From: Halocafeteria seosinensis
Taxonomy: Eukaryota
DNA: 64,000 bases
Assembly: GCA_001687465.1 (NCBI GenBank)
Contig: LVLI01000353.1
Coordinates: forward strand, 1 to 64,000
Direction: 5' to 3'
The notes under the pieces are model-generated. The model had not been told where the DNA came from. It was given only the letters and a program-made list of their open reading frames with translations, and searched no databases. A program made the translations under genes and the position numbers. Positions 1 to 27,413 of this stretch are shown here, piece after piece (positions within the stretch are counted from its first letter, which is position 1; each line of letters starts with the position of its first letter).

Positions 1-1648
1 GAGTGGGAATACGGGCATGATCCATATCAAGACTGGAAGCACAAACAACGGTGATTCTGGAAATATAGTATTTAGTAGTGGTCAATCTAACGACGGTTCT
101 TCTGGGAGTCTTACATTTGGCACAGGAGTTAGCACAGACGGCGAGAGTGGATACGTAAGCCTCAGTACCGGGAAAGCTGACAGTGCAAACTCGGGCTACA
201 TCCTTTTGGCTACTGGTGATGCGGAAGAGGGAGACTCCGGTGGAATATCACTTCTTGTAGGACGGAGTACGAGTGGGAACGGAGGCAGTGTCATCATACG
301 GGCTGGCTCTGCAGTAGATGCTGGACACTCGGGGGGACACGTAGAGATCTCCAGTGGTGGAGGAAATTGTGGGGGTAGTGGACAAGTAACATTGCAAAGC
401 TCAGATTCTTTGGAAAGCGGAAATACTGGATCATTGAAAATTAATAGTGGTGCTACAGTTTGTGGAACGTCCGGAAGCTTCTCAATACAATCCGGGCGGA
501 GTAACTGTGGATCCTCTGGTTCCATAGCAATCACCACAGGAAATGCCGAGGCTGGCGTTTCTGGACAAATTACATTGAAGACTGGATGCAGCAGTGAAGG
601 AGCATCAGGAAGTTTGTCGCTTCTGGTAGGAGCAACTACCCAAGGTAATGGTGGTTCGATCGTAATCGCTGCGGGTAGTGCTACAGACTCTGGAGGCAAG
701 GGAGGCTCCATTGAGTTTCACAGCGGGGGTGGTAATGAAGGTGATAGCGGAGAAGTGACAATGCGGACTTCCGATGTTGGGATCGAGGGCAGTACAGGAG
801 ATATTGATATCGCGAGTGGGTCCACCAACGTTGGAAATAGTGGTTGGATTCTTGTTCGCTCTGGTAGCGCTGCCACCGGTAACACGGGCACTGTCACACT
901 CAACACCGGAAAGAGTGAGTGTGGCTCTTCTGGTGCCTTCTTGTCGAAAACTGGAAACTCGATTGGCGGAAATAGTGGTGGGTTTAGCTTTACTACCGGG
1001 AATGGGAGGAAAAGCGGGTCCATATCGCTTATTAGCGGCGACGCCTGCTCTGGGCCTTCGGGAGGAATTGTATTGCAAGTTGGAGCGAGCAGTATGAACG
1101 ATGGAGGCTCAGTGATCATCAACGCTGGGTGTTCACAGGGTAGCACTAGTCAGGGTGGTAGCATCTCGTTGACTACGGGGGGTGGTAATGCTGGAGGGAG
1201 CGGAGACATCGATATGAGAACAGCTGACACTCAGGGTTCTGGGGACACTGGCAATCTTCAACTCACAACCGGAAATGCGCAGAGTGGGAATACGGGCATG
1301 ATCCATATCAAGACTGGAAGCACAAACAACGGTGATTCTGGAAATATAGTATTTAGTAGTGGTCAATCTAACGACGGTTCTTCTGGGAGTCTTACATTTG
1401 GCACAGGAGTTAGCACAGACGGCGAGAGTGGATACGTAAGCCTCAGTACCGGGAAAGCTGACAGTGCAAACTCGGGCTACATCCTTTTGGCTACTGGTGA
1501 TGCGGAAGAGGGAGACGCCGGTGGAATATCACTTCTTGTAGGACGGAGTACGAGTGGGAACGGAGGCAGTGTCATCATACGGGCTGGCTCTGCAGTAGAT
1601 GCTGGACACTCAGGGGGACACGTAGAGATCTCCAGTGGTGGAGGAAAT
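1..1648 (+). repeat. Near-identical internal duplication in giant ORF A: 1-367 vs 1282-1648 (offset 1281 nt = 427 codons)
   Basis: Direct comparison shows identity apart from about 2 substitutions (GDSG/GDAG and one synonymous tcg/tca). The copy probably extends beyond the window start. Confidence 0.95.
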
Positions 1649-13600: not shown

Positions 13601-16600
13601 AGTGGGTCAGTAAATATTCTTACGGGTAATGCAGCGGACGCCAGTGGGCGATTGTTTATAAGAACAGGAGCGGCGAACAAGCATTCCGGGAGTTTGTCCA
13701 TTACTACAGGTGCAAGTACTGCCGGTGATACCGGTGGCGTAGTAGTTCTTTCTGGGATGGCCGGCAATAACTCAGGAGACATTCTATTAGCTACTGGGAC
13801 GGCTAACAATGGGAGGTCAGGATCCTTGTCGATATTAACAGGCAGATCGTCGAATGGAGCATCTGGGCACGTAGCAGTTATTGCAGGGGACGCTAACAAT
13901 GGGTTGGGTGGGAGCATTAGCTTGCTTGCGGGTAGCTCCCAAAACCATGCGGCTACCGGAGGGGCAGTAACAATCATTACCGGAAACGGATGTTCTGATA
14001 GTGGAGCTATCCAGATAGAGTCGCACTGTATGTTTTCTGGTTCTTCTGGAAGTATTACATTGCGCAGTGGAGGCCTTAGCCAAGGTGCCACTGGACAGTT
14101 GGCTGTATCATCTGGTGGTAGCAATAGCGGGTCATCAGGAAATATTCTCGTTAGCTCCGGAGAGGCTGGGAACGACAGTGGAAGTATTACACTCAACACC
14201 GGTGCTGCCAACGAGGGGTCCTCCGGCGCCTTAGTCTTGTCGGTAGGAGAATCGAATGAGGGAAATACTGGCTTTTTACTGATGAGGACAGGTAGCGCCT
14301 GCAAAGCAAGTGGCTCCATATCCCTTGTTGCAGGTAGCTCAAATGGGGCAGGAGGGAACTTCTTGATCAAAGCTGGGGACTCGGGTGGAGAAGAAAATGG
14401 CGGGGCGATCATATTGGCATCTGGCAATGCCAACTTTGGCCAGAGTGGTAAAATATCACTGAGCACTGGAAGCAGCTCCTCAGCCGGTAGCTCCGGGGAA
14501 GCCACAATAAAAACTGGCAACTCAGTGAGCGGTGTGTCCGGAAGTATCTCAGTGGTTACTGGACGCTCGAACAGCGGTGACACCGGTTCGGTGGACATAG
14601 CTACAGGGGCGTCCAACTGTGCAGAATCAGGTGCTCTCCTTTTGTATTCTGGAGATAGTAACCAATCGGATTCTGGAGGACTGCTGCTGTCCTCTGGTAC
14701 AAGTAGTAACGGTAACAGTGGGTATATTGCCCTGGTGACGGGGAGTGCTCGTCATCGTACCGGCGCGATATCTATTGTTGTTGGTGAGTCAGAAGTTGAT
14801 GACGGTGGAGTAATCTCTATTCGGGCTGGTAACTCTAATGGGGTGAATGCGAAAGGTGGTTCTGTCAGTGTAGTGTCCGGATCGTCCCTGAACGGGAACA
14901 GCGGTAGCATTGAGCTTCGCACTCGCACATCTAAAAGTGGGAATTCAGGAAGAGTCGCATTTAGTACAGGAAGTTCTTGCCAGGGTTCTTCAGGGAGCCT
15001 ATCCTTCATATCTGGAAATGCAGCGCAGAGAAACTCTGGATCAATACATGTACAATCGGGATCGACTGTTAGTGGTACCAGTGGGAATATCCGAATTGCC
15101 ACCGGCAGAGCGCTCCAGTCCGGCTCTATAAGCGCTATGACTGGAGCAGCGAATGAGGAATCGGGCGACATTGTACTCTCTTCAGGCTCCGCTTCAAACT
15201 CCGGGTCTGTATCTATTGTTGCAGGAGTAGGCAATTCCATGGGAGGAAATGTAGTTCTTATGTCTGGTTCCAGTAACGGACAGAGTGGGTTCGTCAATGT
15301 AATTACGGGGTCCGGCGGTGCTGGTAAATCAGGAGAGCTGTCTCTATTCAGCGGTAGAGGATCTGTGGCAACAGGGAATATCAGGATGTTCTCTGGTGAG
15401 TCACAAGAGGGAAATTCAGGGTACGTAAAAATCTTTACAGGCTGTGCGCATGATGGTAAGAGTGGCTCTTTCGATATTGCGACCGGTAACTCCAATGATG
15501 ATCACTCCGGCTACATAAAATTGAGCACTGGGAGCGGTACGAAGTCGAGCGGTTCCATATCTTTGCTGGCCGGGATCGCCAATACCAATGCTGGGTCAAT
15601 AGTAATGAGTGGAGGCGACTCTTTGTCTGCTGCTGGTTTGGGTGGCTCAATAGAAATTGTTTCAGGAAAAGGAGAAGCTGCTTCCGGGATGTTGGAGTTT
15701 TCCACGGCCAAGGGCGGAAATAGTGGCACCTCGGGTTTGGTCGTGCTGCGCACGGGATCGTCTACCTCTGGAAATAGTGGAAGCGTCTCCGTGTTTACTG
15801 GACAAAGCAATTGTCAACGTTCGGGACATGTTCACATTGGTTCTGGAAATGGGAAAGAGCAAGGTTCCGGTTCCCTTACATTAGCGTCAGGTGACGCCGA
15901 GGCCAAGTTTTCTGGGAGCATTTCCATCTCGACAGGCAACGCCTGCAGTGGAGCCTCTGGATCTATTCTGTACGGGAGCGGAGGGAGCACGAGTGGACCT
16001 AGCGGCTCAATCTCTCTTTTAAGTGGGGCGTCTAACGGAGGAAACACTGGTAGTGTGACGATAAAAACCGGCAAAACATCCACAGAAGCAGAAACGGGAG
16101 ACATCACTGTATCTACTGGCCAGAGCCCTTTAGGAATTTCGGGAGGTATGACCTTGAGGACTGGATGTGCTGATAGTTGGAGTGGTTCTCTTAGTGTTTC
16201 GACTGGTTCCTCCGCTGAAAATAGCGGCTACCTCTATTTCAGTACAGGAAACAGCAACAACGGGAATTCTGGAGCTGTAGACGTTACCACGGGGGCCGCC
16301 TCCTGTAGGGGTAGTGGTGCCATTTCTCTGTCTACTGGCTCGGGCCATAACACGGGAAAGCTTGTGCTGGAGACCGGTGTGTCCAATAAAAGGTCAGGCT
16401 CAATCTATGTGAGCTCCGGTAATGCAGGGATGAGTACTGGAATGGTAAAGATTCTTACTGGAAAAAGTGACTCTGCGTCTTCAGGAAATGTCATACTAGC
16501 GACGGGAAATTCAAACACAGGGCAGAGCGGTGGGGTGGCCATCAAGAGCGGAAAGGGGAACACCAGCGGAGAATTAGAGCTGAGGAGTGGAGACTCAAAC

Positions 16601-19600
16601 TCCGGGAATAGTGGCTCGCTTCGGATGCATTCTGGAAGCAGTAATAACGGGGCTTCGGGCTCAATTTCGATATTAACGGGGAAAGCGCAGGGTGCTACCG
16701 GCGGTTTGGAGATGATAACGGGGACCTCTGCCCTTAGCGACAGTGGGTATATCGAGGTTCAAACTGGTACGGGTAACAAGAGTGGGAGGTTGAGTTTCTC
16801 GACTGGCAATGCTAGCTCTGGAAACACCGGTTACATAGCAATAGTAACCGGAGACAGTGAGGTAGAAACTACTGGTTCAATAAGTATCACAGTTGGGCAA
16901 GCAAACGCTGGCAAGGGGGGGGATGTGCATATCTCGGCGGGTTCTTCTTCTGACCCGTCAAGTGGAGGTGGAAGAATCACCGTTATTAGTGGCGGTGGTA
17001 ATTCCGGAGGCAGTGGAGACGTCAGCATTCGCACAGCGAATGCACTTCACGAAGGAGATACCGGCACGGTTGTGCTCAGTACTGGTAATACCAACACTGG
17101 CAATACTGGAAGCATCACTCTGCGCTCAGGAATGACTACTTCTGGAGACACTGGCGATTTGATCTTTAGTAGTGGTACATCGAAGAAAGGAAACAGTGGT
17201 ACATTGACCCTTGGAACCGGTGCCACAACAAATGGAGACAGTGGTCGTCTTAGTATACGCAGTGGACAAGCGAATAACGGAAATAGTGGATACCTTTTGT
17301 TGGCTACTGGGAGTGCAAATGGTGGTAGTGGTGGATCAATTTCGATGCTAGTAGGGTCAAGTACTGTTGGAAATGGTGGTGATGTGTACATTTCTGCTGG
17401 ATCTTCGACTGATGTGGATGCTCGTGGTGGCAATATACAGATAATTAGTGGCGGCGGTAACACCGGCGGTAGCGGAAGCCTAAGCATTGTTTCAGCGGAT
17501 ACTAATGCTGGTACATCTGGCTCGTTTACTCTTCGCAGCGGGTCTTCAAATACCGGAAATAGTGGAGGGTTGGTTCTGCACACTGGCAATGCGGCTACGG
17601 GCAACTCGGGAACTCTTTCCATGACGACTGGGATGTCCAACTTTGGCTCCAGCGGCAAGGTTGTGTTAGCCACCGGGGGGTCTTGCAACGGGATGACCGG
17701 CTCTATCGATATGAGTACAGGTGCTGCATCTTCTGGTGGTTCTGGGAGAATACTGGTACGCACCGGAGATTCCAATAGTTCTTCTTCCGGGTCAATTTCA
17801 ATGGTAACTGGAACGTCAAACAAGAAAACTGGCGGTCTTACATTTTCCAGCGGGGACGGAAGCGAGAACAGTGGTATCCTTGTGGTCTCCACAGGGAAAA
17901 GCATTTGCGGGAATAGTGGAATGATCACTATTGCAACTGGGAAAAGTGCAGGTACTGGTGCTTCGGGCAACATTGCTATGTCCTCCGGAGAAACTAATCA
18001 AGGATCGTCGGGATCAATATCTATCCTCTCTGGTTCCTCCGCAAGCGCTAACAGCGGCGATATAGTTCTAAGTACGGGAGCCGCTCCTAATGGGAAAGCG
18101 GGTTCCATCCTGCTTGGCACAGCAGCTGGTGGCGATGGTCGGGCAGGAGGCTTTTCTTTAGTTTCCGGGTTATCTTCCAACGGGAATGGTGCGCACGTTG
18201 TAATATTTGCAGGCTCTACCCTTGATATGGACGGAACAGGTGGTTCGGTCTCGATTTCCTCTGGAGGGGGTAGTTGTGGTGATTCTGGTGGGCTTGTGTT
18301 GGAGACTGCAGATGCCCATGCGGTTTCCGGTATTATATCAGTTTCAACTGGTATGTCAGAGAATAACTCGGGAGCGTTGACACTTGGTACGGGAATTGCA
18401 CATTCCGGAACAAGTGGGGGCATTTCTATCTTCACGGGGGTCAGTAACATCGGCCACTCGGGGGTGATCGACATCTTTTCAGGTGACGCCAGTTCCGGTG
18501 CTTCTGGAAAGATTGAGGTGCTTACGGGGTCTTCTTGTAGTGGCAATTCTGGTAGTATTTTGATTAAGTCCGGTGAAGCAAACAGCGGCAGTAGTGGTAG
18601 CCTCTCTCTACTCGCAGGAAACGGAAATTCCGGGGGCAGTGTCGATGTGCGCGCAGGAATGGGCAATAATGGGGACGGTGGTTATGTTGCAGTAATTTCA
18701 GGGTCTTCTTGCAGTGGAAATACCGGCTCAATTTCTCTAGTTACTGCTGACACCGAGTCTAATGCCTCTTCGGGTTTAGTAAACATTCGATCGGGCAACG
18801 CGGGAGGGGCTTCGGGTAGGATTACAATGGAGACAGGAAATGCTGAAGCCAATAGCGGGCACATTAGGTTTGAAACTGGTACCTCTGTCTCCGGTGCGAG
18901 CGGTAGCATTTCTATGTTTACGGGAAAGAGCGACGGTGATTCAGAATCCGGGGCAATAAATTTGACTACAGGCAATGCAAACGGGAAATCAGGGTCGTTA
19001 AATATCTCCTCAGGGAATTCTCTTACGGGGAACTCTGGGGGCATCACAATATCGGTTGGGTCTAGCAGCTCTGGAATGGGTGGGTCTATTTCGATTTCGA
19101 CAGGGGAGAGCAATGCAGAAAACAGCGGACGAGTAGTGCTACTAAGTGGAAACTCTGAGTGTGGTCGATCTGGGACAATAGTTATGACGAGCGGGTCCAG
19201 CAACGCCTCTACAAGTGGGGCAATTTTAGTTGCCACTGGTGCTAGCTGTTCAGGGGCTTCGGGTAGTTTTGAGTACGCAACAGGGGAAAGCCAACATGGG
19301 TCATCAGGCGAATTGACAGTTAGATCGGGAAACGGCATGTCTTCCGGCTCGATTTCCTTAGTGTCCGGAGACTCAGAAGCAGATTCCGGGAAGTTAGCTC
19401 TGGGTACGGGTACGTCAGATGGCTCCAATGCTGGTTCAATACGTATAAGCACAGGAACAGCTAACTGTGGGAGATCAGGTTCGATATCCGTTGTAGTGGG
19501 TCGTAGCACAAATGGAAACGGTGGAATCGTCTCTATCAGGGCGGGTAGCTCTCACAAACTGAAGGGTGGCAGTGTCAGTATCTCTAGCGGAGCTTCCCCT

Positions 19601-22600
19601 ACGGACAGTGGTGATCTCCTCCTACACAGCGCTAGCAGTAACGCAGGTGGCAACAGCGGAGCTTTGAGTATCTTTTCAGGAGATGCAAGTACTGGCGACA
19701 CTGGATCTCTTACTCTACAGACAGGGTCGTCCTCATGCGGGTCTACAGGCAGTTTTGATGTTATTTCAGGAAGTACTAATGTAGGAAATAGCGGAATGAT
19801 TCGCATAGAAACAGGCGCAGCAAACCAGGCTAAGAGCGGGGGTATTCGCCTACGTACTGGAGCCACTTCCTGTGGCAATGCTGGACACATACATATAGCA
19901 ACAGGATCCTCCAAAACCGCCGTTGGCGGTACCTTTTCGCTGTTAGCCGGCTCAAGCGAAACCGCGAGAGGTGGTGACGTTATTGTAGCAGCCGGCTCTT
20001 CATCGGACCCCGATGCGCAAGGTGGAAACGTAAGGATCACGAGCGGAGGTGGCAATGCTGGAGACAGTGGAGCGATAACAATCTATAGTCCCGACGCGTT
20101 GTCAACTGGAAATACCGGGCAAATACTGTTAAGCACTGGAGACGCTAATTCTGGAGACACAGGAGCGATCATATTCCGATCAGGCGTAACAACCTTGGGT
20201 GACTCTGGTGAGGTCATGTTGAGCAGTGGTATGTCCTGTGGAGGAAATAGTGGAACTCTAACGTTAGGCACTGGTGCCACCACAAACGGTGATAGTGGGC
20301 GCATTGTCTTGCAAAGTGGATCTACGAACAACGGGAATGCCGGGTTCATTCTTATTGGTAGTGGTCAAGCAACAAATGGCATCGGTGGATCAATTTCTCT
20401 GTTGGTTGGGTCTAGTGATTCAGGTAGCGGAGGTAATGTATACGTTGCTGCTGGCTCGTCATCGGATTCGACCGCGGCGGGAGGGTCGATACAGATTCTT
20501 AGCGGAGGTGGTGACTCGGGAGGGAGTGGAGACATTTCTATCGAGAGTTCCTCTGCCACGATCGAAGGGAGTACGGGCGCAATCCTCTTAAGTAGCGGTG
20601 ACACTTGTAGTGGGAACACGGGGTCGATCATTCTCCGTTCAGGACTGACAAGTGCAGGTGATTCAGGTGAAGTCATGCTCAGCAGTGGTATATCGCTGAT
20701 GGGTAACAGCGGGAGACTGACACTTGGTACGGGAGCCTCCACGGACGGGGACAGTGGCCGCATTATTTTACATAGTGGTGGAGCAAACAACGGTAATGCC
20801 GGCTATATCGTGATTGGTACTGGGAAAGCGCAATGTGGTGTAGGAGGCTCGATTTCGATCCTCGTAGGCTCAAGTGGAAGTGGTAATGGTGGTAATATTA
20901 ACCTCTCCGCTGGAAGCTCATGTGAACGAGGCGGAGGAATAGTCTTAGCTTCCGGAGAGGGTGAAACGTTTTCGGGGGCTATTTCTATTTTCACCGGAAA
21001 AAGCAATTCCTCTGGAAGCGGAGGTTTAGCCATTGGCACAGGCATATCCGCAAAAGAGTCTGGAAGCGTCCAAATTGACACCGGTACATCCAACGGAGAC
21101 TCCGGCCTGATTCTCATCAGTTCAGGAGATTCGGATACAGGTGTTTCTGGTGAGGTGACGGTGAAAACAGGAGGTGGTTGTAAGCAGTCAGGGCTTATAA
21201 GTATTCGTTCGGGGGAGAGTAATCTTGTGAACTCTGGTTCAATCATCCTCGCTACGGGCAATGCCAATAGCGGTAGATCCGGAAACCTAATTATCTCTGT
21301 TGGACGGGGCAACGAAAATGGAGGCTCAATCCGCATTGAAGCTGGTGCATCCACTGGTGGCAACGGGGGTGGTATAAGTATTACCTCGGGAAATGGCGTT
21401 TCCTCAGGCAAGGTATTTATAGCGTCTGGTAACAGTTCATGCGGAAACAGTGGTAGCCTGAGCATTGTAAGCGGAGAAGCTGAAAACGTCTCTGGGTCGA
21501 TCACGTTTCGTAGTGGTGACGCCGATAAGGATTCAGGAAGCTTGGACATATCCTCTGGAGCCGCACAATCAGGCAACTCTGGATTCATTCTCCTAGCGAC
21601 GGGCCCCTCAAACTGTGGGATAGCCGGGTCGCTTTCTATTGTTACAGGCTCTTCACAAAACAAAGGTTCCAGCATTTACATAAGAGCTGGAGAAACAAAC
21701 TCATCGACTCATGAAGGGGGATCAATCTCGTTAATTACTGGAGATTCAGTGGGGGGAACAACAGGTTCCCTGACCCTTCGTACTTCGGGGAACACTGCAT
21801 CAATGGACTCAGGAGAAATAGGACTAGTCTCTGGACGTGTTAACGAAGGAAATAGTGGTTATATAGCCATATATTCTGGATTGACTAACTGTGGTACCTC
21901 CGGGACAATCAGCGTGACGACAGGTTTATCAACTTCTGGGAACACAGGTGGAATTACAATTGCCACCGGTGTCACGACTGAAGGGGATTCTGGAAGTGCA
22001 ACTTTACGCACAGGGAAATCTACCTCAGGAAACAGTGGTAACGTCTTGATAAGTACAGGGGAAGGTATCAATACTGGCTCAATTTCTGTTGTTGTTGGTT
22101 CAGCTACCACCAACGGAGGATCTCTCGCGGTTATGGCAGGGTCGGCGACGGGGTCAGACGGGATTGGTGGAGCTATCACGATTGCAAGTGGATCTGGAAC
22201 CGCAACAAGTGGTTTTATAGATATTGAGAGCGGTAAAGCTCACGATTCAAGTGGGTCGTTGAGTGTAGAGACAGGAGCGGCTAATAACGGCGATTCCGGT
22301 GATATAAGCATTGGCACTGGGAATTCTAACTCCGGGAAATCGGGGTCTATACTCTTGAGTGTAGGCGATAGTAATCATGGTGGCGTTGGAGCTGTGCAGT
22401 TTCAAACTGGGACAGCAAATGCCGGAGACTCTGGGTCCGTAAAATTTGTGGTCGGGGATAGTGATAGTGGAAATTCTGGCAGTCTTATATTTGTCACGGG
22501 GAAGTCCAATTCGGCCGACTCGGGATCAATTAGAGTTATCACAGGGAACAGTGATTCTGGGAATTCGGGTTCGATTTCCTTGCTCGGTGGGTTGGCGGAA

Positions 22601-25600
22601 AATGGTAACGGGGGTGACATTTTCCTCTCAGCCGGCCGGAGTGAGGCAGGCCGAGGAGGCGATGCAACCATTTTCACAGGTCTTGGTTCCAACGGTGATT
22701 CAGGGGCTCTGTCTCTTATTTCTGCCACGGCAGACGGAAATTCAGGAAGGCTGAGTTTGACTACAGGTAAATCTGCTCAGGAATCTACTGGAAACATCGT
22801 AATGGCATCCGGAACCTCGGGCACGGATAGCGGTACGGTTTCGATTCTGACTGGCGGTGCCAATGGAGACTCAGGTTCTATTACGCTGTCTACGGGTTCA
22901 TCTAATTCCGCCATGTCTGGTGGTATCTCGTTATTTTCTGGAGGCGCGGACTCGAGTGGGTCTGTTGTAATCCGGAGTGGGAATGCCAATGTTGGAGGCG
23001 GGGGCTCTATAGAACTCGAGACTGGCGAATCCTCTCTTTCTAGTAGTGGAGGGATCAGTATTCGAACGGGAGACGTAGACGTAGCAGGGGCTTCCGGAAA
23101 TATCCTATTCTCCACCGGTAGCTCTTGTGATGGAGACACTGGAGGCTTTACGGCGTCTACCGGCTCAACAAACATAGGAAACAGTGGAGCTCTTGAAGTT
23201 CGCTCAGGGATGGCTCAGTGCGGTTCTTCCGGGTTTATCATCCTTCAGACTGGAGATTCCAGAAGCGGAGAAAGCGGGGGTCTAAGCTTTGTTTCAGGAG
23301 CTAGCAATGCTGGCGAAGGCGGGGGAATCGTTCTGTCAGCTGGCTCAAGTGTAGCTTGTGGTTCTGGTGGCTCAATTGACTTCTTTTCAGGCTCTGCATG
23401 CAACGGAGAGACTGGGTCATTGACCATCGTGACCGCCGCAAGCAATTTAGCTAATACCGGGCATATCTTACTCAGTACTGGGAATGCTATCACCGGTTCC
23501 TCCGGTCATGTTGTTTTGTCCACTGGTTCGTCGAAGCATGGAGAAAGTGGAGGAGTTACCATCACGACTGGGGACGTTACTGCCTCTAATGCTGCAGCTG
23601 GAGACTTTGATTGGGAAGCCGGTTCCAGTAGCAAGGGAACAGGGGGGTCAATTCTACTGACCGGTGGGAGCGGAAATCGCGGTGGGTCTGTGTCGATCAT
23701 CGCTGGAGTAGCGTGCAGTAGTTCCGGTATTGGTGGCTGCATCGCTTTTGAGACCGGACGCAACAACGATGGAATGTCAGGTGAACTGTTGCTCTTGACA
23801 GGTGACGGCTGTTCTTCCGGAAGCATCACTCTCGCCACCGGTACTGCTAGCACTGACATATCCGGATCAATCACCGTATCAACAGGTAATAGCGGAAACG
23901 AAGGGGCTGCTGGAGGCATAGAGTTACAAGCGGGTAACAGCATTGACAACACAGGAGCAGGTGGCGGTATCACCGTTCGAGCTGGCAAAAGTAGCACCCA
24001 AGCGGACGGAGGAGACATAGAAATTGTTGGTGGGGGTAGCACTTCTGGCAACGGAGGCTCCGTACGTCTTCAAGCAGGAAACAGCGTACACCACGATGGG
24101 GGTGATTTATCAATTGCCTCTGGCAGCGGAAACACAGAATCCGGGAGTATAGACATCCGGTCAGGGGATGCAAATTCTTCTGGATTCTTAGCTTTAGTGT
24201 CTGGCAAGAGTAGCGGAACCAGTGGTTCTATCAGTTTGATTACTGGATCCAGTAGCACAGGATCCAGCGGGGATATTATACTATCCACGGGAAGTGCATC
24301 AGTGGCTTCTGGAAGCATTTCTTTGTTTGCAGGCGAAAGCAATGGTGACGGGGGTGCCCTTGTTTTACAAAGTGGCCGCAGCAACACTGGCACGAGTGGG
24401 GAGGTCATTATTGCATCTCGCAACGGTCAGTGTTCGGGCTCAATCGAGATTCGTACGGGTAGTTCTGATGTTTCCAGTGGTTTCGTCGACATTAGCACGG
24501 GAGATAGCAACGGTGCAGCTGGCAGCATCAGCATTACCGTAGGCTCGGCTAAGGACAAAGCTGGGGATGTTGTCATTAGGGCTGGCGACGCTTCCTCTGG
24601 TAGTGATTACAATGGGGGATCCGTTTCCATTATAGCTGGCAAAGGACCAAGCGCCGCGACAAAACGCAGCGGCGTCGTGAGAATAGAGACCAGTAGCAGT
24701 ATCTCTGGTGACTCGGGTAAGGTAACATTAGCTACAGGCAACTCGGACGGAGTATCCAATGGCTCGGGTGCTATCACGCTCCAGACTGGGGTAGGAACAG
24801 GTTCTTCCGGGAATATTCATCTCCTAGTGGGTGATTCAAATGCTAACGGTGGATGCATCATACTTTCTGCCGGGAAGTCTGTCCGTTCGGGCACTGGTGG
24901 CACCGTTCTTATACAGGGAGGATCGTCATCCAGCGGGAATGGTGGATATGTCATTTTGTCAGCGGGTAGTGGGTCAGCAAATGGTGGTGCCATTAGTATA
25001 CAAAGTGGCGCTAGCAATTTTGCCCTCAGCGGCAGTGTGCATGTACTTACGGGAGATGCTTGTGAAGGGTCTAGTGGTGATATAGATATCGGGACAGGAA
25101 GAGCTACCTCAGGTAGAAGTGGCGACGTTCAATTTACGACAGGTGATTCAAGTGGAGGCAATAGCGGCGAGCTTGTTTTGGCAAGCGGAAAGGCTTCGAG
25201 TGCTGACGCGCATGGGGGCTCCATATCGATTGTTGTGGGCGCATCCGGCAACAATGCGCGTGGTGGCAACTTGCTCCTTCAGAGTGGGAAAGGTGGCTCG
25301 CACTCTGGAAGTTTGTCGATGATCACAGGTAACGGCGGGAACACCGGCTCCATTGTATTTTCATCCGGCCAGGCGAACAAACAGTCAGGGAAACTTGCCT
25401 TTTCCACGGGGAAATCGAATTGCGGAACGTCTGGTGATATAGTAATGAACATTGGCACATCTGTGAACGGAAACGGGGGCAACTTCCTCGTGACGTTAGG
25501 TAGTGCAGAAACCGGAAACGGAGGAAGCATTAGTCTCCTCAGTGGGGATGGCAATCGGGGTGGTGACATCGTAGTCTCTGCCGGGGATGGTACTTCTAAT

Positions 25601-27115
25601 GATGGTGGTGGTGTTACTATCTCGAGTGGTTCCAGCAACAGCGGTAAATCTGGAGATATAGACATATTTACAGGCGATGGGAGTGATGGGTCTTCGGGTT
25701 CAATTATTCTCAGTACTGGGTCAGCGACTACATGTGGCCGAGCTGGAGGACTAAGTTTGATCACACACGGGGCGGAAAACGGAAACTCAGGTTCGCTTGT
25801 GCTCAGTGTTGGAAGGTCGTTCAATTCAAACGGTGGTTTCATTTCCTTAAATGCTGGGAGCTCAACTGGCGGTAATGGTGGAACTGTGTCACTCATTGGA
25901 GGCAAAGGAGAAAACATGGGTGGCCATGTTGTTTTGGCTTCTGGAGAAGCAAACGGAGACACTGCTCTAAGTGGACTCATCCAAGTTCAAAGCGGAGAAG
26001 GGACAAATGGGGCCGACTCAGGAAACGTGGTCCTTCAAACTGGTTCTGGTGTCAACAGCGGTTCTATCTCGATTATATCGGGTAAAGGGAATGAGATGTC
26101 CGGTCATCTTCGCTTCGCTACTGGAGCAGCAACCAATGGTGATAGTGGTTCATTGGTTTTTGTAGCCGGCGAGGCAACCGCTTCAGGCAGTGGAGGCCAC
26201 ATTTCCTTGTTGGCAGGCTCGTCGAACCTTGGTGACGGTGGAATGATTGTCTTATCAGGAGGAGAAAGCGCTGCTGCGGACGGTGGGGGAGGTGATATCA
26301 TGCTATTTGCCGCTGGGAACACCCAAGCGGGAGGCAGTATTTCCATAGTTGCTGGAAGTAGCGACTCTAATCCCTCATCAAATGCTGGGAACGTGTACAT
26401 TAGTGCTGGTGAGCACAACGGAGCAAATGCTGGCAGGGTGTTATTGACAACGCTAGGTGGTGATAGCGAAATCGACATAAGAAAATCTATCAGGATCGAA
26501 GCGCTTGAAGACGTGACGGTGGATGCTGTGGAGGATTTTACACTCACTGCAAATACTATAGACTTTTTGGTTGCTGGAGGTACGACAGCAGGGGTCAAAA
26601 TAGAGAGCGCGACACAAGCGACATCAGCATCCGCAAGCATTGACATTTCTACAAATGGTGAAGGGGACATGATGTTCACAATTTCCGAATCGACAGGGAC
26701 TTCTGTTTCCCCGGGGGTCTTCAAGATCATTACCACTATACCTGCTAGTACAGCCAACGAGAGAGGCAGGATAAAACTTGGAAGTGATGAAATGGAAGGA
26801 TTCACCGAGTTATGGACGGTCGTTGCTTCGTTTGCAGACGGGAGGGAGCTTGTCGACGGAGAGCAATTCCACGACAGGATTTCTCTCAGTGAGCCGGACT
26901 TCTCAACTATGAATGCTTCAAGAGACATGATTTTCACACAGCTCCCATTCACCCCAGGGATAGTCTCATCGGCAACCGTGAACACGGCCTTCAGCGGCGG
27001 TGGTTCCGGTATCGATCTATACCTCACTAACCCGACAGACACGCCTATCAATATAGAAACTGGGCAGGGTGTGGTCTTCTTGCAAATTATACGGATGACT
27101 GATGGTAGCTCGTAG
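2..27115 (+). CDS. Giant Gly/Ser-rich repeat protein A (>=9037 aa, 5'-truncated by the window); predicted beta-helical fibre with a non-repetitive C-terminal tip
   Basis: A single frame is open from position 2 (agt ggg aat acg ggc atg...) to TAG at 27113-27115. It carries hundreds of 14-16-aa units such as GQILLSTGDANSGDT and GAIIFRSGVTTLGDS; the last ~220 aa are non-repetitive. The ATG at 17 is internal, since the same sequence recurs at 1298. Confidence 0.93.
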   Translation, partial: SGNTGMIHIKTGSTNNGDSGNIVFSSGQSNDGSSGSLTFGTGVSTDGESGYVSLSTGKADSANSGYILLATGDAEEGDSGGISLLVGRSTSGNGGSVIIRAGSAVDAGHSGGHVEISSGGGNCGGSGQVTLQSSDSLESGNTGSLKINSGATVCGTSGSFSIQSGRSNCGSSGSIAITTGNAEAGVSGQITLKTGCSSEGASGSLSLLVGATTQGNGGSIVIAAGSATDSGGKGGSIEFHSGGGNEGDSGEVTMRTSDVGIEGSTGDIDIASGSTNVGNSGWILVRSGSAATGNTGTVTLNTGKSECGSSGAFLSKTGNSIGGNSGGFSFTTGNGRKSGSISLISGDACSGPSGGIVLQVGASSMNDGGSVIINAGCSQGSTSQGGSISLTTGGGNAGGSGDIDMRTADTQGSGDTGNLQLTTGNAQSGNTGMIHIKTGSTNNGDSGNIVFSSGQSNDGSSGSLTFGTGVSTDGESGYVSLSTGKADSANSGYILLATGDAEEGDAGGISLLVGRSTSGNGGSVIIRAGSAVDAGHSGGHVEISSGGGNSGGSGTASFKSSDSNGVGDSGSVEIFSGDALCGNTGSLLLFSGDAWDDSGNVSLLSGSSCEGSSGQMDISSGNANVLRSGDVHVRTGSAGACSGELLFTTGNADGASGSISIVAGSSNVGNGGRVAIKGGTSSSGSGGYVHLLTADLTSGPSGAISILTGSSTGSGARSGAVTIASGEANHSSGNITIETGKSSASKTGNLRVQSGDGHTESGYLLMKSGKSNVGNSGPISVITGLSCCGRSGHILLSTGDANTNSGGVSILVGSSTSSNGGAVRIIAGNSNNGAGGSIDVSSGQGNLSSGNVSVGSASAANTGRLEIRSGDASHASGGISVASGNANTSLTGSITINSGSSKSGDSGALFLITGSSESASSGNIELASGLSCGGLSGSISFASGNARLSSGSVTLRVGDSYCGQGGTITIHAGNANSSLPGGRIRIQTGASENGNSGSVSIRTGKSNTKNSGYLLFASGGSSSGKSGAISQVTGEAGSCSGRLLLATGNSKDSSGSLIFSTGKSNCGDSGSISLLVGLSDTNQGGDVFVQAGNSVSGRGGNVFVSSGASNKQSGTVSIESSTSTNGNTGRVLIATGLSGGMKSGQLEIASGTANSGNSGSITIKTGQSNTKTSGSTTVSTGDSTSGCSGSVSIITGSSDASCSGSIFLQTGNANTAAGSISLLVGDSQSSSGGCVVIKAGLVTDGNQRGGSILISSGGSNLGGSGRISMRSADTHGTGDTGNFLVQTGNAETGDTGLIHITTGSTNGGDSGNILFNSGESNDGSSGSLTIGTGSTTSGDSGYLTLSTGKSDTGNSGYILLATGDAEGGDAGGISLLVGKSTKGNGGSVIVRAGSSSDTGHAGGDLLISSGGGNSGGSGQAILRTASSSGCGNSGSLQLLSGDTLTGDTGNVKLATGTTNEGNSGALVLASGESVSGSTGKITFSTGSSAEGNSGSLMWSTGESNTQDSGSILVQTGSSCEGETGSISLVVGHSTEGTGGAVVLRAGTSTCAKGGLVDIVSGTSCSGTSGTVTISTGLSTCGASGGLFVASGTSKATSGAMSISTGSSTENNSGKLSLRTGNASASTSGYILFRTGNSAQGSGALSVLTGVSSDGYSGEILLETGCALASNGASGYIRMRTGCSQTNSGGITLATGDVPNGEQSGSMSMMSGNSHSGHSGSLQLRSGQANSGDSGSITVATGESCSSNSGVVTIETGESFVRSGSIEVGTGASTGSASGDISMTSGSATCRSGSVSLVVGDANTGDTGNIEITAGTVTNGDGNGGSVTLRSGDASNGSSGSVEVRSGGVSGAGDSGSFIVGTGSTPDGNSGSISIVGGDSNVGDTGMISIGSGKTNEGVSGSISVYSGVACDGQSGSLYLFTGCAIAGKSGSARLMTGSSTCGDSGSISITAGEATDGNGGGVFIAAGPSTGSSGKGGSVTIQGGRSCQGHSGSLSLRTLDSLVSGNSGYLRIGTGDAATGSSGSISLWTGLVTDGSSGGFLLSSGEATCGNSGYIALLTGGAETDTGSISLVVGTSSKGNGGSILVRAGTAQASDGKGGSVSISSGGGEHGDSGDAYVATGSVSEDGKSGVLVLSSGSTSTGNTGYAKLVTGDANEGDSGMLRISSGESISGNSGQIDINSGSVTSGDSGYLSLATGTSENGDSGYMLLQTGQSNCGRSGGISFLVGKSTAGNGGDVALKAGTAIAAGCSGGSILIKTGCSRSGNSGRLEFVTGSGGCSGASGTIALSSGLACTGASGSLLLASGRSESGASGTMSLLTGVAENGNSGAFVAFTGTACQRTGSMELSTGSTTSGSSGSILAGTGSGQNRSGSLSILVGTSCGTGGNMFIGAGRVEGLGGKGGSAQLVSGSATNGESGQISILTGDVTQAGNTGSIVMRSGSSNNGSTGSVSIFSGSSSSGDSGRLTLRTGSLNDGESGPITLQTGTTKTGNSGAVSFLSGSTNGRSGSLTFSSGDSNVGPSGSISLSSGASVSANSGKIVFTAGSAWGVGGRISISSGTGQGVSRSGGIGVTTGDSNLGASGAISLTTGKSEGDSSGAITFITGDSPNGGNSGQIMLSSGAGNSGKSGAILILSGNANTSTGSISVLVGHAENEGGDIVFQAGGSSEEDGGSVAITSGGSNSGSSGSISLVSLASLGSTGGTTIKSGESTEGNSGSMLLSSGKAASGRSGEIKLKTGSSNCGSSGTISLETGCSIEGTSGSLNYVTGSSCSGSSGHIALISGNADNGKSGSLSLNVGTVNSGDGGKIWVTAGDSSGENSEGGGITFMSGGSADGDSGSISLLTGKILQSGNSGMFSATTGNAQGGNSGSVLVRTGKASLGASGSLTMYSGDANEGDSGGISITTGITDSGSSGSIVLGSGDSNSGNSGALRLVTGDSSAGGAGDISVLVGSSGNGNGGSITIKGGTSKAICGNGGAISILSGKGGSGGRSGDISLATDSASCQGSGSLSIYSGLSELDSSGYITISSGKSCSGRTGSVQISSGVGNERSGAIIIHSGNGQQSTGAIGVHTGKSNSASSGSIALSTGNANSGKSGSMLIKTGCSNCGSTGAITLSVGTSRSGNGGEILLDSGKSDIGGSGDVSILSGGSDNGDSGKISVQTGNAIEGFSGSLVFASGSAKSGDSGKVSISAGSSTSGNSGGIHLLTGSGNKASGSISLHVGSSNSSGGSIVLHAGCTKCANGGSVQITSGGSEEKNSGSIILSTGVALLGNSGSITSVTGTSDNGASGAIILGSGCGLSSGDISISSGQGNTNTGKMSLRTGTSCSGNSGSIELKTGDGNCGRSGDILILSGNGNSAAGSISLIAGHSDCGDSGHIVLSGGRSDSSVGRGGSISLFSGASNAGSSGDLHLTTSKGESASGELQLHTSGGQGNSGAIKIQSGDSATMNSGLVLLESGDAHSSSGAIRVSTGSVNEGSSGSLRFLSGNTEDGNSGVLTVSTGVACNGRAGSISLTVGSSSNAAGGEIAISAGASTSGQNKGGSLTMLSGAGTNADSGSIVVGSSKVTGLANSGAISISSGKGNNGDSGPLKLLSGSAVEGDTGDIIIATGHSSCGASGNIVIETGCGNASGSAGSISVLIGKSGSGDGGNIILSAGESSCGNGGTITILTGEVANGGTSGSFSLLTADANVNGDTGSILLSTGTTCSGFTGCIRIVTGSSDTGDTGYMYAATGTAINGKSGAVSIATGVSDDGESGSVRISSGASNGGNSGWILLQTGGAESGASGGVSISVGNSGCGSGGSIFLRAGNGQGNADGGAVVLETGESAQSNSGSLKLSTADQSLATSGSLVIESGTSSSADSGSVLMQTGKANGRSGAFSLFTGSSTSNRSGNLAFYTGGTNSGLSGVLTARTGTSIEGSSGYLLLQTGSATSGEGGSISLLVSSGANGGSIHISAGNASGSGGNGGSVLVQSGGGNGDGSGAVSIMSADVSHCGTTGSLEIRTGKTLDGNTGIVTVSSGSSQSGTTGYISFASGTSSNGGSGQVTISTGATTEGSSGSLELTTGRTNSGNSGFILISTGDSVEGIGGSISFVAGNSKVQEGGSIFGAAGVSNDATVGGSIEFRSGKSLLGCSGGIGIRTGSGKISSGNAILKTGEADNGNSGSFSIFSGTASSSSGHLDLRSGDASSGDSGYILLSTGRSNCASSGGISILGGKACGAGGSIELHAGNSKSMSGGFVSISTGSGCQGSSGSISIATSSATKRTGSLILSTGVSEEQNSGEILVQSGQATEGNSGNIAIRTGAACETTGSIILSSGNSASGSSGSISILGGDGSCSGSRVSIIAGFSGGPNSTGGKIRIVAGKSKCSSSGPITFSTFNSQSSTNSGGILFSTGRSCSGTSGHLSFSTGDGVNMGNSGLIVIHSGMSQGGDTGAIDLSTGKATLASGDMKIATGESNCGNSGHVSILTGSACGRSGGISMIAGASSSSTGGSIVIEAGSTTSTTHSGGAIDLHGGAADGVGLSSGNVSVQSGCSIGGSSGSVNILTGNAADASGRLFIRTGAANKHSGSLSITTGASTAGDTGGVVVLSGMAGNNSGDILLATGTANNGRSGSLSILTGRSSNGASGHVAVIAGDANNGLGGSISLLAGSSQNHAATGGAVTIITGNGCSDSGAIQIESHCMFSGSSGSITLRSGGLSQGATGQLAVSSGGSNSGSSGNILVSSGEAGNDSGSITLNTGAANEGSSGALVLSVGESNEGNTGFLLMRTGSACKASGSISLVAGSSNGAGGNFLIKAGDSGGEENGGAIILASGNANFGQSGKISLSTGSSSSAGSSGEATIKTGNSVSGVSGSISVVTGRSNSGDTGSVDIATGASNCAESGALLLYSGDSNQSDSGGLLLSSGTSSNGNSGYIALVTGSARHRTGAISIVVGESEVDDGGVISIRAGNSNGVNAKGGSVSVVSGSSLNGNSGSIELRTRTSKSGNSGRVAFSTGSSCQGSSGSLSFISGNAAQRNSGSIHVQSGSTVSGTSGNIRIATGRALQSGSISAMTGAANEESGDIVLSSGSASNSGSVSIVAGVGNSMGGNVVLMSGSSNGQSGFVNVITGSGGAGKSGELSLFSGRGSVATGNIRMFSGESQEGNSGYVKIFTGCAHDGKSGSFDIATGNSNDDHSGYIKLSTGSGTKSSGSISLLAGIANTNAGSIVMSGGDSLSAAGLGGSIEIVSGKGEAASGMLEFSTAKGGNSGTSGLVVLRTGSSTSGNSGSVSVFTGQSNCQRSGHVHIGSGNGKEQGSGSLTLASGDAEAKFSGSISISTGNACSGASGSILYGSGGSTSGPSGSISLLSGASNGGNTGSVTIKTGKTSTEAETGDITVSTGQSPLGISGGMTLRTGCADSWSGSLSVSTGSSAENSGYLYFSTGNSNNGNSGAVDVTTGAASCRGSGAISLSTGSGHNTGKLVLETGVSNKRSGSIYVSSGNAGMSTGMVKILTGKSDSASSGNVILATGNSNTGQSGGVAIKSGKGNTSGELELRSGDSNSGNSGSLRMHSGSSNNGASGSISILTGKAQGATGGLEMITGTSALSDSGYIEVQTGTGNKSGRLSFSTGNASSGNTGYIAIVTGDSEVETTGSISITVGQANAGKGGDVHISAGSSSDPSSGGGRITVISGGGNSGGSGDVSIRTANALHEGDTGTVVLSTGNTNTGNTGSITLRSGMTTSGDTGDLIFSSGTSKKGNSGTLTLGTGATTNGDSGRLSIRSGQANNGNSGYLLLATGSANGGSGGSISMLVGSSTVGNGGDVYISAGSSTDVDARGGNIQIISGGGNTGGSGSLSIVSADTNAGTSGSFTLRSGSSNTGNSGGLVLHTGNAATGNSGTLSMTTGMSNFGSSGKVVLATGGSCNGMTGSIDMSTGAASSGGSGRILVRTGDSNSSSSGSISMVTGTSNKKTGGLTFSSGDGSENSGILVVSTGKSICGNSGMITIATGKSAGTGASGNIAMSSGETNQGSSGSISILSGSSASANSGDIVLSTGAAPNGKAGSILLGTAAGGDGRAGGFSLVSGLSSNGNGAHVVIFAGSTLDMDGTGGSVSISSGGGSCGDSGGLVLETADAHAVSGIISVSTGMSENNSGALTLGTGIAHSGTSGGISIFTGVSNIGHSGVIDIFSGDASSGASGKIEVLTGSSCSGNSGSILIKSGEANSGSSGSLSLLAGNGNSGGSVDVRAGMGNNGDGGYVAVISGSSCSGNTGSISLVTADTESNASSGLVNIRSGNAGGASGRITMETGNAEANSGHIRFETGTSVSGASGSISMFTGKSDGDSESGAINLTTGNANGKSGSLNISSGNSLTGNSGGITISVGSSSSGMGGSISISTGESNAENSGRVVLLSGNSECGRSGTIVMTSGSSNASTSGAILVATGASCSGASGSFEYATGESQHGSSGELTVRSGNGMSSGSISLVSGDSEADSGKLALGTGTSDGSNAGSIRISTGTANCGRSGSISVVVGRSTNGNGGIVSIRAGSSHKLKGGSVSISSGASPTDSGDLLLHSASSNAGGNSGALSIFSGDASTGDTGSLTLQTGSSSCGSTGSFDVISGSTNVGNSGMIRIETGAANQAKSGGIRLRTGATSCGNAGHIHIATGSSKTAVGGTFSLLAGSSETARGGDVIVAAGSSSDPDAQGGNVRITSGGGNAGDSGAITIYSPDALSTGNTGQILLSTGDANSGDTGAIIFRSGVTTLGDSGEVMLSSGMSCGGNSGTLTLGTGATTNGDSGRIVLQSGSTNNGNAGFILIGSGQATNGIGGSISLLVGSSDSGSGGNVYVAAGSSSDSTAAGGSIQILSGGGDSGGSGDISIESSSATIEGSTGAILLSSGDTCSGNTGSIILRSGLTSAGDSGEVMLSSGISLMGNSGRLTLGTGASTDGDSGRIILHSGGANNGNAGYIVIGTGKAQCGVGGSISILVGSSGSGNGGNINLSAGSSCERGGGIVLASGEGETFSGAISIFTGKSNSSGSGGLAIGTGISAKESGSVQIDTGTSNGDSGLILISSGDSDTGVSGEVTVKTGGGCKQSGLISIRSGESNLVNSGSIILATGNANSGRSGNLIISVGRGNENGGSIRIEAGASTGGNGGGISITSGNGVSSGKVFIASGNSSCGNSGSLSIVSGEAENVSGSITFRSGDADKDSGSLDISSGAAQSGNSGFILLATGPSNCGIAGSLSIVTGSSQNKGSSIYIRAGETNSSTHEGGSISLITGDSVGGTTGSLTLRTSGNTASMDSGEIGLVSGRVNEGNSGYIAIYSGLTNCGTSGTISVTTGLSTSGNTGGITIATGVTTEGDSGSATLRTGKSTSGNSGNVLISTGEGINTGSISVVVGSATTNGGSLAVMAGSATGSDGIGGAITIASGSGTATSGFIDIESGKAHDSSGSLSVETGAANNGDSGDISIGTGNSNSGKSGSILLSVGDSNHGGVGAVQFQTGTANAGDSGSVKFVVGDSDSGNSGSLIFVTGKSNSADSGSIRVITGNSDSGNSGSISLLGGLAENGNGGDIFLSAGRSEAGRGGDATIFTGLGSNGDSGALSLISATADGNSGRLSLTTGKSAQESTGNIVMASGTSGTDSGTVSILTGGANGDSGSITLSTGSSNSAMSGGISLFSGGADSSGSVVIRSGNANVGGGGSIELETGESSLSSSGGISIRTGDVDVAGASGNILFSTGSSCDGDTGGFTASTGSTNIGNSGALEVRSGMAQCGSSGFIILQTGDSRSGESGGLSFVSGASNAGEGGGIVLSAGSSVACGSGGSIDFFSGSACNGETGSLTIVTAASNLANTGHILLSTGNAITGSSGHVVLSTGSSKHGESGGVTITTGDVTASNAAAGDFDWEAGSSSKGTGGSILLTGGSGNRGGSVSIIAGVACSSSGIGGCIAFETGRNNDGMSGELLLLTGDGCSSGSITLATGTASTDISGSITVSTGNSGNEGAAGGIELQAGNSIDNTGAGGGITVRAGKSSTQADGGDIEIVGGGSTSGNGGSVRLQAGNSVHHDGGDLSIASGSGNTESGSIDIRSGDANSSGFLALVSGKSSGTSGSISLITGSSSTGSSGDIILSTGSASVASGSISLFAGESNGDGGALVLQSGRSNTGTSGEVIIASRNGQCSGSIEIRTGSSDVSSGFVDISTGDSNGAAGSISITVGSAKDKAGDVVIRAGDASSGSDYNGGSVSIIAGKGPSAATKRSGVVRIETSSSISGDSGKVTLATGNSDGVSNGSGAITLQTGVGTGSSGNIHLLVGDSNANGGCIILSAGKSVRSGTGGTVLIQGGSSSSGNGGYVILSAGSGSANGGAISIQSGASNFALSGSVHVLTGDACEGSSGDIDIGTGRATSGRSGDVQFTTGDSSGGNSGELVLASGKASSADAHGGSISIVVGASGNNARGGNLLLQSGKGGSHSGSLSMITGNGGNTGSIVFSSGQANKQSGKLAFSTGKSNCGTSGDIVMNIGTSVNGNGGNFLVTLGSAETGNGGSISLLSGDGNRGGDIVVSAGDGTSNDGGGVTISSGSSNSGKSGDIDIFTGDGSDGSSGSIILSTGSATTCGRAGGLSLITHGAENGNSGSLVLSVGRSFNSNGGFISLNAGSSTGGNGGTVSLIGGKGENMGGHVVLASGEANGDTALSGLIQVQSGEGTNGADSGNVVLQTGSGVNSGSISIISGKGNEMSGHLRFATGAATNGDSGSLVFVAGEATASGSGGHISLLAGSSNLGDGGMIVLSGGESAAADGGGGDIMLFAAGNTQAGGSISIVAGSSDSNPSSNAGNVYISAGEHNGANAGRVLLTTLGGDSEIDIRKSIRIEALEDVTVDAVEDFTLTANTIDFLVAGGTTAGVKIESATQATSASASIDISTNGEGDMMFTISESTGTSVSPGVFKIITTIPASTANERGRIKLGSDEMEGFTELWTVVASFADGRELVDGEQFHDRISLSEPDFSTMNASRDMIFTQLPFTPGIVSSATVNTAFSGGGSGIDLYLTNPTDTPINIETGQGVVFLQIIRMTDGSS

Positions 27116-27413
27116 ACATAACCCATAGACCGCACCCGGCAAGATTACAGCTATGGTAGAACTCGGGTACATACATTATAGTTACCACCATGATATTTGT
27201 ATACCACTTCTTGTTTGTTATTGGTGCTTACCGAACAAAGAATAATGACATCCTTTGTTTACATGGAAATCTCAGATCTGCTTTTCACTGAATCATTGGA
27301 GCACTTCACAAATGCACTCTGCCATTATCCCTAGTGTTAGTGTTTTGTGTCGAAGCAGGGTCATTCGCTGTCTTCAAGTTCACTGTTGCACAGCATTTGT
27401 ATGTATCGTACGG

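Follow-up and report, generated by a model that had tools for sequence, protein, structure and literature searches.

ORF A, in the 64,000-nucleotide window analysed here, is a nuclear eukaryotic ORF of more than 9,000 codons, and its product was predicted to form a three-chain fibre with a build like that of a phage tail fibre. On the modelling described below, we consider with moderate confidence that ORF A encodes a giant homotrimeric adhesive fibre with a trimerising and probably glycan-binding tip, and not a membrane-piercing spike.

ORF A and its genomic context

ORF A (2..27115, forward strand) is stop-free, has no visible intron and encodes at least 9,037 aa, which is a lower bound since its 5′ end and N-terminus lie beyond the window. 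Over the same span the other two forward frames contain 390 and 548 stops. The neighbouring genes (WDR19, an adaptor mu subunit, ARMT1-like and ankyrin genes) possess GT-AG introns of 63-95 nt, confirming the eukaryotic nuclear context claimed in the earlier note. Transcript runs X2-X4 were spliced at these introns, with GT-AG ends at 13 of the 15 joints listed and none in X1. Reads from X2-X4 cover the neck and knob of ORF A with no joint inside, so the 3′ end of ORF A is transcribed. The stop codon and likely 3′ UTR were placed at 27113..27212 (forward), as contigs from two spliced runs stop at 27212, a weak indication from one study.

A convergent, paralogue-like ORF B (47455..63999, reverse strand; at least 5,514 aa) has the same shaft repeat and an 8-periodic neck at about 48211-48351 (reverse; lag 8 z 2.9). 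Its C-terminal domain differs from the ORF A knob. ORF B would be a second fibre carrying another tip.

Shaft, neck and predicted trimer

The order of parts in ORF A is shaft, neck, linker and knob. The shaft (2..26464, forward) consists of about 588 imperfect 15-residue Gly/Ser-rich repeats, each with one hydrophobic strand and a glycine loop. Its motif was matched 494 times, against a shuffle maximum of 28, with a spacing mode of 15. The repeat is a low-complexity sequence. In BLOSUM autocorrelation lag 15 dominates the shaft and is gone at about 26393, and the switch from a 15-residue to an 8-residue period noted earlier was borne out. The neck (26465..26578, forward; 38 aa) holds 4-5 octamers, including IRIEALED, VTVDAVED and FTLTANTI, which do lie in frame at 26489-26560. 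In a window picked post hoc, lag 8 reached z=4.3, a value attained by none of 3000 shuffles and equalled in 12 of 8,781 shaft windows, and it alone stood out among the 12 lags tested. Lag 8 was not significant (p=0.57) in the neck of P0002, the only homologue found, which has a one-residue insertion there.

The C-terminal part was modelled as a homotrimer with ESMFold2 (P0001 residues 40-271), giving an ipSAE of 0.79 in three runs against 0.00 for the best of 3 controls. Among solved microbial homo-pairs, 21 of 30 passed the ipSAE mark; none of 23 single chains did, and only one of seven eukaryotic proteins without an older solved relative. The mark was calibrated on dimers and applied here to a trimer, and a pass could reflect model memory of solved triple helices. 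The runs share at least 81% of contacts, with partner pLDDT of at least 66. The trimer interface, as read from contact lists rather than coordinates, takes in nearly all of residues 44-104, and i/i+8 inter-chain pairs in the neck (60/68, 70/78, 71/79 and 76/84 in P0001 numbering) are as in a triple beta-helix. The ORF A product is thus predicted to be a homotrimer whose 8-periodic neck is intertwined and whose tip is a small beta-sandwich, also trimeric, as the earlier note had anticipated.

The linker (26579..26758, forward; about 60 aa) has four or five short strands connected by long S/T/G-rich polar loops. It is the least conserved part (21 of 60 residues identical to P0002) and only partly confident in the trimer model, its interface residues being limited to 94, 98-104, 113-117 and 126. 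The neck and the globular end of ~115 aa described earlier are both present, but the neck is only 4-5 units long and the end, a 118-aa knob, does not directly follow it.

Predicted fold of the knob

The knob (26759..27112, forward) was modelled as an all-beta domain of 8 strands (pLDDT 72), predicted to trimerise, and is identical to P0002 at 58 of 118 residues. The motif D-[VI]...A-x-V...L-x-N-x-T given earlier proved loose: ORF A has D-M-I, and A-x-V and L-x-N-x-T are not exact in P0002. In a VIA search of 48,161 chains, 9 of the top 24 were fibre or tailspike tips or H-type lectins, including KP32gp38 488-580 (Z 7.2, rmsd 3.5 over 90), discoidin I 152-253 (Z 7.0, rmsd 3.0 over 89), LKA1 gp49, phi297, the R1 pyocin foot 603-701, AP22 gp54 and SLL-2; AP22 gp53 ranked 29. 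All Z were below 8, a level that may signal just a common arrangement. The matched ranges agree with the set of foot domains listed in Table 2 of PMC6363177, of which five of six non-pyocin members were recovered. Atlas pointed to H_lectin, Gp53-like_C and K1-lyase_C (0.77-0.84), as leads only. A catalytically irrelevant dUTPase-like fold fits equally well: dUTPase-fold proteins took 14 of the top 24 rows, level with the lectin class, and predominated in one further comparison. The likeness to phage-fibre tips proposed earlier thus holds in that phage tailspike and pyocin fibre tips are among the neighbours, but at Z about 7 and tied with dUTPase folds. The discoidin-like fold also occurs in eukaryotic lectins.

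Foldseek searches of PDB and BFVD returned nothing at E<=0.001, and Pfam, PHROG, NCBIfam and PDB sequence searches gave no match. Profile comparison with K1 lyase, gp53, gp54 and the ORF B tips, of low power, gave no signal (27-34 of 40 shuffles were as good).

The knob likely binds glycans, as does the discoidin-like foot domain found in phage tailspikes and in pyocin fibres. It is also likely to start trimerisation. The lectin-like domain of KP32gp38 is required for trimerisation and on its own did not bind capsule (PMC13082707), so the fold is no proof of sugar binding.

Possible phage link and comparison with known fibres and spikes

The shaft search gave 3 matches among 7,993 candidates. 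In 3 of 12 viral loci (L002 annotated), relatives of one lie downstream of genes for tape measure, hub and wedge. The shaft repeat is thus also present in phage contigs with contractile-tail modules, in genes that occupy the tail-fibre position. The ORF A repeat matrix matched 4-29 times in all six such phage proteins, where shuffled sequences gave at most 1-2 matches, and not at all in 3 control fibres; on L002 it matched 8 times forward and 4 times on the reversed sequence. The strongest indication of a link to phages is this repeat, which is absent from the argument of the earlier note. Sequence and profile searches connected the knob with no phage family, and the knob and its one sequence relative, P0002, are too few for a tree. 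Phage ancestry or domestication of ORF A is no more than plausible.

In the adhesive fibre that we favour, likely secreted or surface-displayed, the knobs would trimerise first and the octamer neck would then put the three chains in register. The 15-mer strands could next zip up to continue the neck as a three-start beta-helix, the glycine loops staying flexible. The gp5 helix measures 110 Å for 23 strands (PMC3004832); at the resulting figure of about 4.8 Å per strand, the part of the fibre encoded in the window would span about 0.28 micrometre if the shaft is a beta-helix. A gp5/VgrG/gpV-like spike, as suggested earlier, is not supported. Those spikes have the VxG octapeptide and the HxH apex as signatures, whereas ORF A has neither and its helix is short and internal, not terminal.

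Two convergent repeat genes and their shaft

ORF A (2-27115, + strand) ran for 9,037 codons without a stop, the window start already lying inside the frame, and ORF B (47455-63999, - strand, 5,514 codons) was oriented towards it. Glycine and serine together made up about 40% of both proteins, with a lag-15 periodicity, and 494 copies of the shaft repeat motif were counted in A, where 200 shuffles gave no more than 28. No introns were found in A over 27 kb or in B over 16.5 kb, and their neighbours have many. The genes between A and B were identified from Pfam as WDR19, an adaptor mu subunit, an ARMT1-like gene, an ankyrin gene and SpoU, which indicates a eukaryotic nuclear locus. Seven of the nine neighbouring ORFs scanned had a Pfam match (one of them weak). 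No phage tail module with baseplate genes was found among these nine, and the downstream neighbours of A were eukaryotic housekeeping genes. The 39 N-glycosylation sequons and 113 cysteines in the sequence of A would be compatible with export, and a C-terminal membrane anchor was not detected in its last 300 aa (highest 19-residue hydropathy 1.21).

Several further features were observed in the window. A 380-nt duplication inside A (2-381 and 1283-1662, 98.9% identity, 427 codons apart) reflects either recent lengthening of the shaft or an overlap in the assembly at the edge of the window. The stretch 29437-30656, of which 1,218 nt were missing from one contig of sequencing run X1, is likely a polymorphic mobile element. 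Very high-depth repeats were present at about 30065-30576 and about 45298-45398, and a 232-nt tandem duplication with 94% identity at 31255-31710.

Out of 7,993 candidates, a 566-aa shaft query recovered three proteins of 670-825 aa (E 5e-12 to 4e-6), and no family matches were found for them. Relatives of the shaft-repeat protein P0006 were found at 12 viral loci. At the viral loci L002-L004 the shaft-like gene comes after a conserved gene run, which in L002 matched tape-measure, baseplate hub, two wedge and one baseplate protein family, while the fibre gene of L002 itself had no PHROG match. The position downstream of tape-measure, hub and wedge genes is the usual one for tail fibres. A position matrix derived from the repeats of A gave 4-29 matches in all six proteins tested, with shuffle maxima of 1-2, 0-4 matches in reversed sequences and none in three control fibres. 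The repeat is low in complexity, so that convergence of the shaft is possible. The shaft end of A had no relative in prokaryote genomes or phage records. Two of the fibre-position genes (L002:7770-9671 and L003:8001-9959) carry about 20 glycine-rich 15-mer repeats, belong to no PHROG or Pfam family and could serve as a compact, manageable model of how the shaft folds. A more acidic form of this repeat, with a spacing of 16-18, was seen in proteins of 317-336 aa from large viral contigs (L008:7824-8774), around which no tail module was seen.

A may perhaps have been domesticated from a phage fibre. It is also possible, if doubtful, that A is a native eukaryotic repeat fibre without a phage donor, in which shaft and neck are convergent and the tip came from eukaryotic H-type lectins. 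The tip fold is present in Dictyostelium discoidin and coral SLL-2 (PMC6363177, excerpt), the final 231 aa of A lie closest to an Atlas cluster that is 90% eukaryotic (score 0.87), GC3 of A (0.43) is near that of neighbouring exons (0.46 and 0.48), and tblastn found no phage record matching tip or shaft. However, the sole shaft matches found are short proteins with a phage-like layout, one shaft-match family lies in a contractile-tail module and has the same directional repeat, and the lack of introns throughout A and B sets them apart from their intron-rich surroundings.

The C-terminal knob

The sole homologue of the C-terminus of A among 1.84 billion representatives was P0002, a singleton of 331 aa (E 6e-38) with its parts in the same order as in A. 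Identity was 24/55 in the shaft end, 16/38 in the neck, 21/60 in the linker and 58/118 in the knob. Word-based searches with this C-terminus detected no homologue among longer proteins, the two-sequence alignment as query returned P0002 only, and no relative was found in viral contigs, metagenome contigs or phage records. The C-terminal domain of B, of about 200 aa, was unlike the tip of A and had no relative in phage records or viral contigs. No alignment between the two tips was found, and the idea that they are one domain gained no support from sequence comparison.

A single-sequence AlphaFold model of the last 271 aa of A reached a pLDDT of 39. With the two-sequence alignment, AlphaFold2 predicted the knob (26759-27112) as eight strands, with pLDDT 72 and pTM 0.61. 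Foldseek with this model gave no matches at E<=0.001, and among the BFVD rows pp65 and a dUTPase stood beside proteins of phage tails and of giant viruses. In a VIA-align comparison of the knob with 48,161 chains no match reached Z 8, and both fold classes scored up to Z 7.2. The top 24 rows comprised 11 dUTPases or dCTP deaminases, 9 fibre or tailspike tips or H-type lectins, 1 unrelated protein and 3 further viral proteins that we take to be dUTPase-derived. The lectin-class matches covered discoidin I 152-253, LKA1 gp49 674-769, phi297 650-746 and R1 pyocin 603-701, with AP22 gp53 180-271 at rank 29. The C-terminal domain of discoidin I matched with Z 7.0 and an rmsd of 3.0 over 89 residues, and SLL-2 with Z 4.9. 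These ranges, including SLL-2, correspond to the discoidin-like foot group of PMC6363177 (excerpt); agglutinin, the sixth member in that excerpt, was absent among the 50 matches listed. The earlier note had likened the tip to those of phage fibres, and tailspike and pyocin tips are indeed among its structural neighbours, but all at Z below 8 and tied with dUTPases.

A second VIA comparison, ranked by Foldseek, returned mainly dUTPases, although its first match was KP32gp38, whose matching lectin-like domain drives trimerisation and showed no binding on its own (PMC13082707, excerpt). One Atlas lead for the tip of A was the C-domain of K1 lyase, a trimeric beta-sandwich dome (PMC8822698, excerpt). 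With HMMER filters on, a Pfam search up to E 10 matched the knob to none of PF09458, PF21882 and PF24146, and Atlas scores were below 0.9. Profile comparison with the tips of K1 lyase, gp53, gp54, the shaft-repeat protein P0004 and B gave no signal, 27-34 of 40 shuffles being as good. The sequence tests point to neither the lectin-foot nor the dUTPase class.

With the two classes tied on Z, we prefer to read the modelled knob as a lectin-like foot, because of the lower rmsd and because this fits its position at a fibre end. It is unlikely that the knob is instead a catalytically dead dUTPase-fold trimerisation cap, the fibre then being structural and its tip not sugar-binding. Viruses have repurposed the dUTPase fold, as in herpesvirus pp65/pp71. 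Besides the many dUTPase-class rows in both VIA comparisons, such rows align across the whole 1-120 range of the knob, and the BFVD rows for pp65, UL83 and a dUTPase had probabilities of 0.93-0.99, but E of 0.05-0.14. However, dUTPases are over-represented in the PDB, and dUTPase-class rmsd was 3.8-5.1, with discoidin I and phi297 lower at 3.0-3.1. When 83 viral dUTPases from 84 fetched loci were made into a profile, no signal was seen, since 43 and 94 of 300 shuffles did as well, and hhalign of the knob against this profile gave a probability of 1%. Three catalytic motifs were absent from the knobs of both A and P0002. The candidate descent of the last strands of the knob from a dUTPase was not supported by the profile, hhalign or motif tests.

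The neck and the predicted trimer

The octamers quoted in the earlier note were present in the frame of A at 26489-26560. The 8-residue periodicity of the neck (26465-26578) was confirmed by lag-8 autocorrelation (z=4.3; 0 of 3000 shuffles as high), and 12 of 8,781 shaft windows reached the same value. In B the neck gave z=2.9 at lag 8 (p=0.003); the neck of P0002 has a one-residue insertion, and its lag-8 signal was insignificant. The proposed succession of neck and knob held for the octamers, of which there are only 4-5 units, and for the 118-residue knob, but the two are separated by a stretch of about 60 residues made up of short strands with polar loops.

Residues 40-271 of P0001, the numbering used for the C-terminal part of A, were folded as three copies with ESMFold2, in three runs with three controls. 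The homotrimer expected in the earlier note was predicted with an ipSAE of 0.79 in the three runs, against 0.00 for the best control, with contact agreement of at least 81% and pLDDT of at least 66. In calibration with two copies, 21 of 30 solved homo-pairs from microbes passed the ipSAE mark and none of 23 single chains did; for eukaryotes it was reached by 17 of 29 overall, by 1 of 7 lacking an older solved relative and by 0 of 30 single chains. Passing the mark may reflect memory of solved complexes. One predicted interface takes in almost all of residues 44-104, and the tightest neck pairs are inter-chain at i/i+8 (60/68, 70/78, 71/79 and 76/84). As read from these contact lists rather than from coordinates, the neck is predicted to be an intertwined, three-start beta-helix, as had been proposed. 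The second interface lies in the knob (169-175, 186-189, 206-227, 239-247 and 258-266), with an expected error of 0.9-1.4 A for knob-knob contacts.

The 8-residue period and the predicted intertwined trimer would also suit a domesticated puncturing spike of the gp5/VgrG/gpV kind, acting as the needle in an injection apparatus or extrusome, but we consider this very improbable. The gp5 octapeptide has Gly at position a, Asn/Asp at b and Val at g, and gp5 contains eleven VXGXXXXX repeats and 18 intertwined strands (PMC3004832, excerpt). The pattern G-[ND]-x4-V had no match in the necks of A, B or P0002, and A has 4-5 strands. Spikes of the gpV type start with an OB-fold at the N-terminus and carry an HxH apex or PAAR cap (bioRxiv 10.1101/2023.02.25.529910, excerpt), but HxH is absent from the last 300 aa of A, where the helix is internal and followed by 178 aa including a blunt, globular beta-sandwich. 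None of gp5, VgrG and gpV was among the 50 VIA matches listed for the model, which comprised the knob without the neck, and the nine neighbouring ORFs held no tail or baseplate genes. The spike identity suggested in the earlier note was thus not supported. The predicted helix of A works like a fibre neck, not like a needle.

Transcription, assembly and known fibres

The region was contained in four sequencing runs from one study (X1-X4), none of them recorded as RNA. Runs X2-X4 skip stretches of 63-95 nt within neighbouring genes, with GT-AG ends at 13 of the 15 joints listed (15 further joints are unlisted, and none of those listed came from X1), so that these three runs look like spliced RNA. 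Contigs from them extend over 25043-27212, 25508-27115 and 26286-27115, all without a joint. The absence of their coverage upstream of 22,200 carries no weight. Taking X2-X4 as RNA on account of their splice joints, the neck and knob of A are transcribed and unspliced. The 3' part of B was likewise covered by the spliced runs. A short gene just downstream of A (27354-28494), whose 317-aa frame had no Pfam match, was also present in them. It is hardly credible that A is an artefact, a contaminant or a silent endogenous virus fragment, for although the named genomes have no orthologue and A contains the near-identical 380-nt duplication, its 27 kb are stop-free, P0002 is 47% identical with the same domain order, the DNA-like run X1 covers A at a depth like that of its neighbours, and its 3' end is covered by the spliced runs.

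In assembly, the knobs likely trimerise, the octamer neck likely sets the three chains in register, and the 15-mer strands likely extend as a three-start helix with the glycine loops outside. At 4.8 A for each of 588 repeats, the part of the fibre in the window would then be no shorter than about 0.28 micrometre. A eukaryote may perhaps have taken a phage tail-fibre chassis, by which we mean the 15-mer shaft, triple beta-helix neck and lectin-like foot, and enlarged it by a factor of more than ten. A and B would then belong to a family of sub-micrometre fibres that differ by exchangeable tips and serve as receptor-binding filaments. If so, phage-style filaments could catch bacterial prey or attach to surfaces.

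No description of such a protein was found in the literature searched. Phages already provide examples of the parts, and eukaryotic lectins of the tip fold; what appears to be new is the scale, the occurrence in a eukaryote and the pairing of two genes with two tips. Phages and tailocins bind receptors through triple beta-helical fibres with lectin-like feet, and an intronless, transcribed eukaryotic version of more than 9,000 residues, accompanied by a sister gene with a different tip, would carry this architecture over to the surfaces or extrusive organelles of eukaryotic cells. It would also open a way into a 15-mer repeat fold that is so far undescribed, and the last 240 aa of A make a small, expressible test piece.

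Among known systems, T4 gp5, VgrG and P2 gpV share with A the 8-residue period and the predicted three-start beta-helix, but A lacks the VxG octapeptide and HxH, has 4-5 strands and does not end in the helix. Trimeric dUTPases and the inactive proteins derived from them in viruses show a possible resemblance at the level of the fold (Z up to 7.2, below 8), whereas the knob has neither the catalytic motifs nor a profile signal. H-type lectins (the C-terminal domain of discoidin I, SLL-2) resemble the knob in predicted fold and trimer; unlike them, it has no Pfam H_lectin match and sits at the end of a giant shaft. The fibre-position genes of contractile-tail phages (P0006, L002-L004) have the same directional 15-residue repeat of a strand plus a glycine loop, but are of 630-670 aa with about 20 repeats, their own baseplate-proximal N-terminus and a C-terminal domain unrelated to that of A. 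The R-type pyocin and AP22 gp53 fibres and the LKA1, phi297 and KP32gp38 tips are elongated homotrimers with a discoidin-like foot (PMC6363177, excerpt), as predicted for A. In contrast to these, A shows no detectable sequence identity and no phage tail genes nearby, has a glycine-rich 15-mer shaft, and is a eukaryotic nuclear gene at least 13 times longer.
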